From positions 1-24,875 of the IMG/VR virus record IMGVR_UViG_3300002092_000181: a stretch of DNA of 24,875 bases; one strand, 5' to 3'. Below, piece by piece: positions 20,710 through 24,875 of this stretch. Made by a program: the position numbers and the translations under genes. The stretch comes from a virus (taxonomy: Duplodnaviria; Caudoviricetes). Within the stretch, counting starts at the first letter, position 1. Each line of letters starts with the position of its first letter. The notes below the pieces were generated by a model that worked only from the letters and a program-made list of their open reading frames with translations, did not search any database and had not been told where the DNA came from.

Positions 20710-23700
20710 ATGGCTGACGATCAATCCTTGGAATCGATGCTCAGCCCGCTGGCAGCGCTGCGCGCGCGCTTGCCGGATCAACCGAAGCTCACGCCTGATG
20801 AGATGCGTGCAGCCTCTAATTTCGCAGCCCCCACTGGCCCCGCCCCCACGCTCCGACCCTCGACAGGCCCGCATCGCACCTTGGGCGAACGCCTGGGCCA
20901 AAACGCCACAAACGCGGTGCAGAACAGCCCTACGGGTGCTGCAATGCTTGGGGCCTTGATCCAGACCCTCAAGGCGTCTGGGCCTGACGTGTACGGCAAG
21001 AACCCGGGTCAGGATCTGGCTGGGGCGGTCAAACGCTCGAACGAACAATATGAGGCCCAGAGCCAAGCTGATCCTTTCTACTCGGCCCCAGGCGGCATGT
21101 TTGACAAGACCCTTGCGGGTGGCGCGACCCTGGCCGGGAATCTGGTAGGCCTGGGAGATCCGCTTTTTGCTGCTGCCACTCCCCTGACAGAGGGGGCAGC
21201 CGCGGCCAACGCCGGCAAGAAGACCCTGGCTCAACTGGCCAAGGAATTCGCCGCGCGCAGTGGCAAGATGGGCGCCCTCAACGCTGGCGCCGATACCGCG
21301 ACCCAGCTGGCACAGCTGGCCGGTGGAACGCGTGACAAATACGACCCCACGCAGACCGGCGAGGCCTTCGCTATGGGCCCCGCGTTCGAGGTCGGCAAGG
21401 AGGCCCTCGTAGGCGGTGCTCGCGGCTTGCTGAGCCTTCTGAAGCCCGGTGACCGCAAGTTGCTTGACACCATGCGGTTGTCGGCAGATGACACGCTCAA
21501 GGCAAAGGGACAATCTGATGACACGCGAAGAGATGCTGGCGAGCTATCCTCAACTGAGGCCGGGAGAGCACCCGGAAAACCTGGAACTGCGCCAGGAACA
21601 ATGGCGCAGGACGGTGGGCCGCAATTTGGGGCAGATGGGCGCTCTGGAGCGCCACGGCCTCCGCTCCCCGGCCACCCCGGCACCTTCACCGTTGGCGGCG
21701 TCCCCAGGACCATCCTCCCCCACGAACCCGCTCGCATCGCTGCTGAATCTTATAAAGCCCAACGCGGGCTAACCACGCCCTCACCGTCCGAATACGTGCC
21801 CCTTGACAAGGACCGAGGTGTCCGGATTGCGCAAGCTTACGGGGCGATGGAAGACAACCCGCGAGATCCCAAGGTCCAGCGTGCATACAGTGCACTCGCA
21901 AACGAGACCCTGGCGCAATGGGAGGCCATGAAGCGCTCCGGTATCACGGTGGAGTTCAACCCGCCCAACGAGTACCCTTACGAACTGCCGCACGATGCCC
22001 TGGACGACATTTCCAGGAACAATCACCTGTTCATATTCCCCACCGACGAGGGATATGGGGAGAGCCCGATCACGGCAGAGGCTGAGGCCATAAATCCAAT
22101 GCTGCAGATCGTCCCGGGCGAGACCTGGAACGGTCGCCCCGTACGGGTGAACGATATCTTCCGCGCCGTGCACGACTATTTTGGCCACGCCTCCGAAGGA
22201 TCCGTCTTCCGCGCACAAGGCGAGGAAAACGCGTTCCGGTCCCACCTCCACATGTTCAGCCCAGACGCTCAACGCGCTTTGGCGACTGAAACACGGGGGC
22301 AGAACAGCTTCGTGAATTTCGGACCCGAAGCTGCAGCCAACAAGGGCGCATCTCAGGCTGAAACGCGATACGCCCCGCAGAAGATCGGGCTCCTGCCTGA
22401 CTGGGCCGTGTTCGAGGGAACAGACTTCGACCCTGCCAGAGGCTCGAGGAAGGCCGCTGGAGCCGATCGCGCGCCCGCAAGCGCCCAGGACATGCAAGGC
22501 CACGTAGACCGCCTCACAGAGAGCTGGAAGAGCGGCACGAAGGCCAAGGTGGTTGCCAGCGAGGATCAGCTCCCGCCGGAGGTTGCAGCCCAGCTGAAGC
22601 GCGACGGCATGTCTGGCAAAACGGGTGCGCTGGTGGGCCCGGATGGCAAGGTCTATCTGATCGCGGACCAGATCGGATCTCCCGAGAACGCGACCTCAGC
22701 CCTCTATCACGAGACGCTGGGCCACCTTGGCCTGAACGCCAAGTACGGAGAGCAGCTGGATCAAGCGCTGGGCCGGATCTACCAGTCCAGCCCTACCGTA
22801 CAGCGCGAGGCCGAAGAATGGCTCCGAGCGCACCCAGAGGCCTACCCAGACGACCCCAACAAGCAGATGCGCGCCGTTGAGGAAGTGCTCGCCGCCAAGG
22901 CCGAGAACGGCGTTCTGGACGCTTCCATCAAGTCCCAGCTTACCGCGATGATCCGGCAGTTCGGGCGCATGATGGGCATGAACCTCGAGATGTCCGACAA
23001 GGAACTCGCGGCCATCCTGCGATCGGCGCAACGCAAGATCACCCATGGTCAAGGCACAGCGGATGGCGCCGGGGCCAACCGCTACATCTTCGTTGGTCAG
23101 AAGGCCTACGAGAACCTGAAGAAACAGGATCCGCGTAAGCTGTTCCCCGAGAACCAGAACCTGATCGCGAACTGGGAAGAGGGCCAACGCATGATGGCGC
23201 AGGGCTTCACCCCGGAGCAGATCTTCGACAAGACCGGCGTCTTCATCAATCCGTCCGACCAGATGCCGCGGTATGAGCTCTCCGACGTGCCCGCTGTGTT
23301 GAACCAGGACTTTAGAACTTGGCAGCTTGGGCAAGAGGCCCCGCTCAACCAGATGCTGACGCACCCGACCCTGATGCAGGCCTATCCTGACAAGGTGAAA
23401 CAATGGACGATCGGCAGGTCTGACAACCCGGACTACTCGGGCTCCTTCGATGCCAACAAGAACCGCATCGAGATCACCGATAAGTCCCAGGATCCGCGCA
23501 GTACCGCACTGCATGAAATCCAACACGGCATCCAGTTCCACGAAGGATTTGACACTGGCAATAACCCTGAATCCGTCTTGGCGTCCGCAACGCCGGAACA
23601 AGTGGAACGGTACGCCACCGAGCTTCTGCCTGCCTTTGAGCGCAAAGCCCAGGGTGCCGAAATTGATGCAATGATCATCAGGGAAATGAAAGACGATCCC

Positions 23701-24875
23701 CGCATGATCGAGTATCTGCAGCTCAACAGCATGAAGGCGGCATCGCTGCGTGCTGGCGTCCCGCTTGCACAACTGGCCCCGCTTGAAGCTCAGATCAAAG
23801 CCTCTGAAGGCCCTGCGTTGCAAGCTGTTTATGACGCAACACAAGATCAAAGCAGAGCAAACGACGAGTGGAGAAAAATATCATCCACCGTACTTGGTAA
23901 TGCAATCAAAAGAATAGAGACAACTCCCAATGACATATTTTTTGGACCGTTATCAAAGGCAAATATAGAAGCAGAAAAATATCAACAAGTTGTTGATGAT
24001 ATTAAGTCAAAAGACAAATGGGGAATGAGAGATGCCATTGCATGGGGCGACACTGTCCCGGAAGCGGCATCTATGCGTCTGCGTATGTACAAGAACGTCT
24101 CCGGAGAAATGGAATCGCGAGACGTTGAGGCGAGAAAAAACCTCCCTGAGTATGCTCTCCGCACCATCCGGCCTTTGAGCACCACAAACGACACGGCGCT
24201 GGTCAAGCCGGAAGACGTGATCCGGACCCAACGAAAGGGCATGAGCAATCCTGCCATCGAGGGGGGCCTGTCAGATCGCGACCGTGAACTTGCAGGCCTG
24301 ATGGCGTCGGTTGAGGACGGCAACAAGCACGGGGTAGAGCCCTCCCTGCGCGTCGAGGTTCCCAATCCGCCCCCACCCGGAACCAAGGCAAAGTTCACGC
24401 AGACGACCAACAACAAGAATGCGCCCAAGCAGCTGGAGAACATCACGCCGGTTCTCGAGGCTCACCCTGACGCGACCAAGAGCACTGACGCTTGGGAAAA
24501 CATGATGGGCGATGCGCTGGGCTTCAGCGAGGTTCCGATCCCCCCCTACGCGTTCATTCGCGATATCAACGGTCAAGGATCGATTGAGAAGCTACAGACC
24601 CTCAAGCCTGGGCAGATCGCTGACGCTGACCACGGGTTCGAGCAGGCGAAGCTTTTCCGCCAGAAGTACGAAGCCGGTGAAATGTCGATCGGAACCACAG
24701 GCGAGCTCCTGATGTGGTCGTTCCTGTCGCGTGGCGTGTCGCCCTACGCGCAGGAAGGCCTGTTCATCGACTCGATCGACGGCATCGAACCTTTCATTCG
24801 CATGGCGGCGGACGGTAATTTCACCAAGGATCAATTCCCGGCCTACGAGGAATGGGTCAAACAGCAAGCCCCCAA
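20710..24875 (+). CDS. Large polyvalent protein (3'-truncated, >1388 aa) with metallopeptidase-like and LPD23-like domains
   Basis: Manual translation shows frame 1 open from ATG 20710 to the window end. HDYFGH (22171), HETLGH (22708), IFDKTGVF...RYELSD...HPTLMQAYP, HEIQH (23512), YKNVSGEMESRDVEAR. Confidence 0.85.
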   Translation, partial: MADDQSLESMLSPLAALRARLPDQPKLTPDEMRAASNFAAPTGPAPTLRPSTGPHRTLGERLGQNATNAVQNSPTGAAMLGALIQTLKASGPDVYGKNPGQDLAGAVKRSNEQYEAQSQADPFYSAPGGMFDKTLAGGATLAGNLVGLGDPLFAAATPLTEGAAAANAGKKTLAQLAKEFAARSGKMGALNAGADTATQLAQLAGGTRDKYDPTQTGEAFAMGPAFEVGKEALVGGARGLLSLLKPGDRKLLDTMRLSADDTLKAKGQSDDTRRDAGELSSTEAGRAPGKPGTAPGTMAQDGGPQFGADGRSGAPRPPLPGHPGTFTVGGVPRTILPHEPARIAAESYKAQRGLTTPSPSEYVPLDKDRGVRIAQAYGAMEDNPRDPKVQRAYSALANETLAQWEAMKRSGITVEFNPPNEYPYELPHDALDDISRNNHLFIFPTDEGYGESPITAEAEAINPMLQIVPGETWNGRPVRVNDIFRAVHDYFGHASEGSVFRAQGEENAFRSHLHMFSPDAQRALATETRGQNSFVNFGPEAAANKGASQAETRYAPQKIGLLPDWAVFEGTDFDPARGSRKAAGADRAPASAQDMQGHVDRLTESWKSGTKAKVVASEDQLPPEVAAQLKRDGMSGKTGALVGPDGKVYLIADQIGSPENATSALYHETLGHLGLNAKYGEQLDQALGRIYQSSPTVQREAEEWLRAHPEAYPDDPNKQMRAVEEVLAAKAENGVLDASIKSQLTAMIRQFGRMMGMNLEMSDKELAAILRSAQRKITHGQGTADGAGANRYIFVGQKAYENLKKQDPRKLFPENQNLIANWEEGQRMMAQGFTPEQIFDKTGVFINPSDQMPRYELSDVPAVLNQDFRTWQLGQEAPLNQMLTHPTLMQAYPDKVKQWTIGRSDNPDYSGSFDANKNRIEITDKSQDPRSTALHEIQHGIQFHEGFDTGNNPESVLASATPEQVERYATELLPAFERKAQGAEIDAMIIREMKDDPRMIEYLQLNSMKAASLRAGVPLAQLAPLEAQIKASEGPALQAVYDATQDQSRANDEWRKISSTVLGNAIKRIETTPNDIFFGPLSKANIEAEKYQQVVDDIKSKDKWGMRDAIAWGDTVPEAASMRLRMYKNVSGEMESRDVEARKNLPEYALRTIRPLSTTNDTALVKPEDVIRTQRKGMSNPAIEGGLSDRDRELAGLMASVEDGNKHGVEPSLRVEVPNPPPPGTKAKFTQTTNNKNAPKQLENITPVLEAHPDATKSTDAWENMMGDALGFSEVPIPPYAFIRDINGQGSIEKLQTLKPGQIADADHGFEQAKLFRQKYEAGEMSIGTTGELLMWSFLSRGVSPYAQEGLFIDSIDGIEPFIRMAADGNFTKDQFPAYEEWVKQQAP
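21518..21772 (+). CDS. Nested +1-frame ORF inside the polyvalent gene (84 aa)
   Basis: AAAGGGA RBS 7 nt before ATG 21518. MTREEMLASYPQLRPGEHPENLELRQEQWRRTVGRNLGQMGALERHGLRSP...; the host frame is a low-complexity linker over much of this span. Confidence 0.5.
   Translation: MTREEMLASYPQLRPGEHPENLELRQEQWRRTVGRNLGQMGALERHGLRSPATPAPSPLAASPGPSSPTNPLASLLNLIKPNAG

Follow-up and report, generated by a model that had tools for sequence, protein, structure and literature searches.

A small gene overprinted in the linker of a phage polyvalent-type protein and its predicted pairing with the adjacent HDxxxH domain

The embedded spanin genes Rz and Rz1 of phage lambda encode the subunits of a fixed two-subunit lysis complex. 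In polymorphic toxin-immunity systems and type II toxin-antitoxin pairs, the immunity gene is a separate neighbouring open reading frame (ORF), and the effector is usually C-terminal. Here, we analyzed a small ORF that lies in the +1 frame inside the gene of a giant polyvalent-type protein in the IMG/VR record IMGVR_UViG_3300002092_000181 (Duplodnaviria; Caudoviricetes), positions 1 to 24,875; this whole stretch of 24,875 nucleotides is referred to as the window. Polyvalent proteins are described to include zincin-like metallopeptidases (MPTases), among them a HEXXXH clade in which the following helix contributes a Glu (Iyer et al. 2017, PMC5512222). The words ‘overlapping’ and ‘alternative frame’ do not occur in the main text of that paper. 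A hidden reading frame of another kind is the ShiLan domain, in which an out-of-frame HNH, a selfish homing endonuclease, resides inside a phage methylase insertion (PMC11855218). Embedded genes and effector-immunity pairs are known separately; literature searches, with most subscription journals outside their coverage, listed no account of the combination, nor any polyvalent protein described as harbouring a nested inhibitor gene.

The nested ORF of the window is very probably a real gene. We propose, with a probability of roughly 0.6, that it specifies a separately translated helical peptide which binds the adjacent HDYFGH (HDxxxH) domain across its conserved pocket and holds it inactive, that is, a cognate inhibitor. 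The features relevant to this proposal are as follows.

20710..24873, plus strand: host ORF of at least 1388 codons, which runs off the window; it encodes a multidomain polyvalent-type protein.
21487..21526, plus strand: two copies of GATGACACGC (21487-96 and 21517-26), a 10-nt match, 30 nt apart.
21504..21510, plus strand: Shine-Dalgarno (SD)-like AAAGGGA, 7 nt ahead of the nested ATG; the SD match is 4 nt by the scoring used.
21518..21772, plus strand: nested +1-frame ORF of 84 codons within the host ORF, with ATG at 21518 and TAA at 21770-21772.
21518..21637, plus strand: nested codons 1-40, the selected core of the gene, as judged from the substitutions of a relative's contig and a weak in-register match to a peptide family.
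21638..21772, plus strand: P/S/A-rich nested tail, which reaches from the last part of the linker into the first part of the domain; no selection in the +1 frame.
21697..22404, plus strand: HDYFGH (HDxxxH) domain of 236 aa, the predicted target of the peptide, supported by a 144-sequence alignment and an AF2 model.
22171..22188, plus strand: HDYFGH motif, a likely metal site; H159, D160, G163 and H164 are invariant, and metal binding is presumed.

An earlier note, made from the letters of the window, had described AAAGGGA 7 nt before an 84-codon +1 ORF, and the coordinates, the frame and the stop were all confirmed. However, ORF length and the ribosome-binding site (RBS) were rejected as stand-alone evidence, as both are within chance: when the host gene was recoded with synonymous codons, all 84 nested codons stayed open in 62% of 1000 trials, and an SD-preceded ATG ORF of at least 84 codons arose near the site in 26% of 1000 trials. 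The direct repeat, suggested to mark the start of the gene, is present at both positions. No role was found for the two GATGACACGC copies in the window and the repeat was discounted as a signal; the first copy provides an alternative in-frame ATG at 21488 (94 codons, weaker SD). The proposed shift of codon usage from the host to the +1 frame is present and unique to this site. Over the first 50 nested codons the codon score is -0.20 bits/codon in the host frame versus +0.11 in the +1 frame, and the five largest +1-minus-host scores among 537 sliding 50-codon windows, scanned across 13 genes of the window, all begin within 21493-21613. A second host-frame dip in codon score, at 23770-24069, is accompanied by no rise in +1 or +2.

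Substitutions were then compared within the window's own lineage. The comparison is based on one public contig (run X15) covering 21245-21890, with 94 differences from the window; three of four runs compared over the nested stretch have no contig there. Divergence amounts to 18/277 nt (6.5%) in 21496-21772 versus 76/369 nt (20.6%) in the flanks (Fisher p 2.5e-7), the two figures being drawn from two separate contig comparisons. Fifteen of the 18 differences are listed individually, and 8 of these fall within nested codons 1-40. Here, the +1 frame shows 5 synonymous and 2 conservative changes (M6L, S9T), and the host frame 0 synonymous changes and 7 replacements. Over codons 41-85, the host frame has 4 synonymous changes and 2 replacements versus 2 and 5 in the +1 frame. 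Sequencing errors in the contig would not sort by frame in this manner. Since the synonymous changes switch frame at codon 41, the gene that matters would comprise about 40 codons followed by an unselected tail. By this measure, the first ~40 +1 codons from 21518 are under protein-level selection, whereas from codon 41 onward the sequence follows the host frame, so that only the first half of the ORF seen by the earlier note behaves as a gene. Neither does the ORF end where the HDYFGH domain begins, as was thought: its tail enters the modelled domain by ~25 codons. The nested gene thus begins and ends with codons of its own, in a frame other than that of the host ORF and within its bounds; the nested frame is under selection, and the host frame is kept open across the overlap. 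In four runs, contigs follow the host gene as far as 21419, where other sequence takes over. This position is likely a module-exchange point, ~100 nt ahead of the nested gene, and would fit a cassette swapped as a unit.

We then asked how often such an ORF accompanies the domain elsewhere. A total of 280 domain loci were collected, the window included. Removal of 15 loci without the HxxGH motif left 265, and merging of 89 further loci at 80% domain identity gave 176 representatives. After leaving out 42 of these with fewer than 260 open upstream codons, 133 loci remained, the window itself being excluded. The nested-ORF test called for an ATG-initiated +1 ORF of at least 40 codons, an SD match of at least 4 nt and an ORF end 380-560 nt before the HD codon. 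It identified 63 of the 133 loci, compared with 14.8±3.6 (maximum 23) in 100 recodings serving as the null, and a single locus in the +2 frame control. With the SD threshold raised to at least 5 nt, 41 loci were found versus 5.1 expected. The ORFs are also concentrated in position (64 of 133 loci in one fixed 180-nt bin, 2-21 in the other bins). Homologous linkers therefore retain an SD-preceded, ATG-initiated +1 ORF far above the null, so that the refuting condition named in the earlier note, linkers with +1 stops or without the RBS, did not refute the gene. Three sets of loci from distant domain clades (L012, L228, L230, L022; L026-L028, L265; L029, L031-L033) have dissimilar +1 ORFs of their own at the same site. 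At L213 and L286 the nested peptide is undamaged but the domain is interrupted by a host-frame stop, reflecting either a decayed copy or a sequence error.

The peptides at this site are not all alike, yet one family (‘family 1’) is present in 37 of the 176 representatives, 36 times in the +1 frame and once un-nested; 32 of these members constituted a hand-picked seed. The consensus is roughly P-x-R-E-x-F-x3-E-x-(F/Y)-E-E-A-x3-W-x2-R-x-G, and an SD match of at least 4 nt precedes the ATG or GTG at 34 of the 37 loci. Among the 32 nested members, amino-acid identity is 0.38 in the +1 frame versus 0.28 in the host frame. Entropy by +1 codon position is 1.03, 1.10 and 1.36, with the third position being the most variable, and stops number 0 in the host frame versus 18 in +2, although most members had been chosen for an open host frame. 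In 39 of 39 pattern hits, which had not been selected for openness, no stop interrupts the host frame over the motif either. These patterns indicate that selection is acting on the +1 frame across the family. Two further peptide groups at the site, each with an acidic helix followed by a basic part, are interspersed with family 1 on the domain tree.

The family is also tied to the HDxxxH domain. A DNA pattern for the peptide alone produced 40 hits in viral contigs, and in 39 of them the domain follows 119-152 nt downstream in the host frame (21 of 22 when counted by distinct motif); the one hit that lacks it is a head scaffolding protein. Paraburkholderia sediminicola (L226) has the peptide and the domain as two conventional, un-nested genes, the stop codon of the peptide gene coming 1 nt ahead of the ATG of the domain gene. 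The pair is located amid bacterial genes, ~4 kb from an integrase, and no virion gene was found among the 21 neighbouring ORFs scanned. As L226 falls within a clade that has nested members (FastTree supports 0.89-0.96), peptide and domain seem to have remained paired once outside the giant protein. This single case could, however, be a remnant. A search with the family profile matched 396 clusters in 1.84 billion proteins, and cluster lengths range from 43 to 346 aa among the 150 matches listed. Some nested products (P0001, P0040, P0063, P0083, P0115) are modular. Two motif copies occur in P0001 and P0115, and other products join the family motif to different short motifs that are found alone at L239 and L038. 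In P0057, P0113, P0116 and P0144 the motif is fused in frame to unrelated-looking domains. Motif copies in 23 virus records number one in 21 records and none in one, with a weak second match in one. The peptide of one member (L208) had no match in plasmids and, in phages, one true match plus nine scaffold matches at E 0.6; the ESM Atlas returned no usable match for a family peptide. The two annotated phage records with a family peptide, MW202675 and OQ594354, list only the host coding sequence over that stretch.

To consider physical interaction, a complex of domain, zinc and peptide was modelled for the best-aligned pair of the family, that of L208 from a Paraburkholderia saeva contig, and not for the window's pair. 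The complex scores were 0.88, 0.90 and 0.90, whereas the best of three controls reached 0.00. Of the solved pairs used for comparison, 116 of 157 attain the pass mark, whereas 2 of 215 mismatched ones do, a calibration that is only rough here given our own alignments and the ligand. The runs agree in at least 89% of contacts, the partner pLDDT (predicted local distance difference test) is at least 84, and there are 138-145 interface contacts. In the model, the peptide helix sits over the invariant residues of the domain. The predicted interface includes N152, R156, H159, D160, E176, E198, Q202 and N203, all kept in the window's domain, and interface positions are identical there in 31 of 54 cases versus 105 of 236 overall. 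Modelled alone, the peptide forms an extended arm and one helix (residues 20-47). Searches of PDB by sequence, with Foldseek and by fold turned up no solved structure related to either chain that the predictor might have memorized, and the peptide model had no fold match. An anti-CRISPR chain matched it at E 0.0099, which was treated as chance. The model supports direct binding of the peptide over the conserved pocket in the L208 pair. The envisaged complex with the adjacent domain has thus passed for a relative's pair. Of the earlier proposal of a hidden partner, partnership with the domain gains support from ORF retention in linkers, selection, linkage and the L208 model; the partner would more probably be an inhibitor than a chaperone or adaptor.

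The domain itself is well defined. Sixteen columns are invariant in 144 sequences, including N152, D153, R156, H159, D160, H164, H183, E198, Q202 and N207; E176, within helix 172-184, is nearly invariant. No match was found in PDB by sequence or Foldseek, there is no NCBIfam family, and the ESM Atlas matches are unnamed viral clusters only. The best VIA match, YbeY (Z 2.7, root-mean-square deviation (rmsd) 4.2, 103 aligned), is too weak to assign a fold; the next ones are the minimal metallopeptidases abylysin (Z 2.6, rmsd 4.5, 93 aligned) and jannalysin (Z 2.3, rmsd 4.7, 94 aligned). Pfam MATCAP matched 6 of the 144 members. The invariant HDxxxH departs from the zincin HEXXH/HEXXXH signature with its catalytic Glu, as Asp replaces Glu. 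Rehh was dropped as a candidate identity of the domain because its described motif differs, the two being set apart by description alone.

Our proposal can be outlined as follows. The domain would be a metal-dependent enzyme whose action damages the cell that makes it or disturbs the development of the phage. Judging from the literature on polyvalent proteins, the giant protein would be made late, packaged and injected. The peptide, translated from the same mRNA, would keep the domain off while the giant protein is being synthesized, and would be absent or lost after injection. Domain and inhibitor may be shuffled between polyvalent proteins as one in-frame cassette, which is possible because the peptide gene sits in the linker without breaking the host frame. 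The G/R/P-rich make-up of the linker may then be largely a shadow of the peptide gene.

Several observations weigh against this proposal. The interval from -560 to -380 was chosen after looking at the loci, and the loci share kinship, so that the counts are not independent events. The test is missed by 70 of the 133 loci, including most tree neighbours of the window, and the standalone bacterial domain genes inspected lack an upstream peptide; therefore, the inhibitor is not obligatory. The lineage evidence comes from a single contig of depth 4.7, for which 3 of the 18 differences, near the ends, are unlisted and may affect the RBS or ATG. As to the window's peptide, the family hidden Markov model (HMM) misses it (E above 10 among 29,332 segments), hhalign gives E 0.063 and a pairwise HMM comparison E 0.021, and it scores -8.8 bits versus 31-82 for family members. 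The near-invariant core residues of the family (R, F, F/Y, E and A) are replaced in it, and Asn occupies the position of I37, the best-predicted contact. Direct searches with it found nothing in the protein database, Pfam, PHROGs or viral contigs. These failures, and the occupation of the same site by several dissimilar peptides, would be expected if the window's gene were real but unrelated to the modelled family and did not bind the domain, being instead an independent overprint or serving to couple translation to a start site internal to the host gene, at the domain. We consider this quite improbable. The best ungapped register places P11 on the invariant Pro and W29..VGR on the W..VGR of the family (shuffle P 0.010); the better P of 0.0008-0.006 uses nine N-terminal columns picked after the likeness had been seen. 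W29 is at -569 nt from the HD codon, within the range of the members (-569 to -536), and selection ends near codon 40, about where the interface predicted for L208 ends. The window's domain is itself a long branch on the domain tree, and amino-acid-level selection argues against a purely translational role. We read the window's peptide as a diverged positional homolog of the family, given the weak in-register match; codons 1-40 likely encode a helix ending in W29..VGR, by the same faint likeness, and its binding to the domain we regard as quite probable. That there is no gene at all, only a chance open +1 frame over a low-complexity linker, would agree with the length and SD being within chance, but is highly implausible in view of the frame-specific substitutions, the three-fold lower divergence, the codon flip and the enrichment of the family.

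If the peptide binds the domain, inhibition is not the only conceivable outcome. It might be a packaging adaptor, with one face bound to the domain and a scaffold-like motif on the other bringing the giant protein into the procapsid, so that inhibition would be incidental or absent. Indeed, 20 of 102 family peptides weakly match the head scaffolding family phrog_8865 (best E 7e-4), the single pattern hit without the domain is a scaffolding protein, and the core aromatics F17 and F23 are absent from the listed L208 interface. Moreover, in P22 the scaffold has been proposed as a docking site for ejection proteins (PMC12005531). However, the scaffold-like core is missing from the window's peptide and from other subfamilies, and the scaffold hit was picked by the same pattern, which makes its score circular. 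The un-nested L226 pair resides among bacterial genes without a virion gene in its scanned surroundings, and residues unlisted in the interface, such as F17 and F23, may still touch. Overall, we find the adaptor unlikely. The scaffolding protein in question (L306:1501-1565, phrog_8865) carries a nearly family-1 motif, through either shared origin or convergence. The peptide might also help the domain to fold, as a chaperone, or activate it as a subunit that makes its pocket complete rather than closing it off, as the same L208 model cannot separate inhibition from activation and its interface is large. Yet the domain modelled alone reaches a pLDDT of 95.9, many domain loci, including standalone bacterial ones, have no peptide, and the peptide covers invariant residues. 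All this makes an assisting role distinctly improbable, and the cognate inhibitor remains our preferred explanation.

What the inhibited enzyme might act upon is hinted at by bacterial neighbours. Standalone HDxxxH genes at 11 loci (L245, L246, L247, L242, L250, L253, L257, L264, L259, L254, L238) adjoin an S-adenosylhomocysteine (SAH)-hydrolase-like gene and/or a DUF3293 gene; seven of these neighbour genes were confirmed by Pfam and the rest assigned by likeness. L259 is a three-way fusion of the HDxxxH domain, the SAH-hydrolase-like domain and DUF3293. One DUF3293 protein has a weak match (E 0.002) to S-adenosylmethionine (SAM) lyase; a literature search for DUF3293, with most subscription journals outside its coverage, returned nothing. 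This neighbourhood is possibly an undescribed operon for SAM/SAH metabolism and suggests, as a lead only, a SAM/SAH- or adenosine-type substrate instead of a peptide.

The window represents part of a phage and includes genes of the adaptor, tail, peptidase and lysozyme kinds, the tail and adaptor genes being upstream of the host ORF. The host ORF matches phrog_3170, phrog_14770 and phrog_13543, and weakly LPD23 (E 0.0055) and DUF6782 (E 0.003), both short of the cut-offs. It contains two further HE motifs, HETLGH at 22708 and HEIQH at 23512.

A similar arrangement may exist around another domain. Eight loci (L147, L164, L197, L183, L135, L190, L161, L188) have nested +1 ORFs with a strong SD at about +255 to +520 nt from the HD codon, just past the HDxxxH domain; a second shared domain begins directly after these ORFs or within them. 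All eight fail the nested-ORF test upstream of the HDxxxH domain. Pfam has no match for the second domain, whose pattern of His and Y-F-G is reminiscent, in our opinion, of an ADP-ribosyltransferase fold. These ORFs hint at a general rule. We tentatively suggest, at somewhat less than even odds, that polyvalent proteins are built of portable cassettes of a domain and an overprinted inhibitor, with each harmful domain having a +1 immunity peptide in the preceding linker, so that many ‘disordered’ linkers would be immunity genes. The peptide studied here would plug a metallo-enzyme whose fold has no clear known counterpart and whose target may be SAM/SAH pools, and the second domain type of the eight loci would be arranged alike. 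Such an organization could explain how a phage makes and packages a giant protein with harmful domains, and shuffles these in frame, while its own infection is spared. It would also mean that a class of inhibitor genes is overlooked in annotation when nested. It also makes a widespread uncharacterized domain testable, since a cognate inhibitor would allow cloning, co-crystallization and activity assays, and a matched peptide-domain pair is available in a cultured Paraburkholderia genome (L208).

How does this locus compare with the known systems? As in Rz/Rz1, a small same-strand +1 gene with its own start lies wholly inside a larger one, and its product binds, here by prediction, the product of the host gene. 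Unlike in Rz/Rz1, the nested gene lies in the linker between two domains of a modular protein and goes with one particular domain through many architectures, and its product is predicted to lie over an enzyme pocket. With ShiLan it has in common that a stop-free loop in the host frame is a real protein in another frame (PMC11855218), but what is hidden here is a peptide of 40-60 aa, with the adjoining domain as its predicted target. Family-1 peptides share a short Pro, aromatic, acidic-helix and Trp motif with podovirus head scaffolds (phrog_8865); those, however, are separate genes of ~300 aa, and little of the motif remains in the window's peptide. The MPTases of polyvalent proteins (PMC5512222) likewise belong to giant multidomain phage proteins, and their HEXXXH clade, with a Glu in the following helix, has the same His spacing as the domain considered here; the latter, however, has HDxxxH and a weak structural likeness to zincins (Z 2.7 or less). 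In the predicted mode of action, the locus resembles toxin-immunity pairs, of which Rehh-RehhI (10.64898/2026.09.22.753552) is an example: a small cognate partner beside the effector would occlude a conserved metal pocket, and unrelated partners can serve one domain family, although nothing links the HDxxxH domain to Rehh. Tight linkage of the small partner gene and the effector is seen here too (39 of 40 pattern hits, and L226), though not at the 70 loci that miss the nested-ORF test. The difference is that the partner gene is here overprinted upstream in the same reading unit, which would let an internal domain carry its putative inhibitor along.

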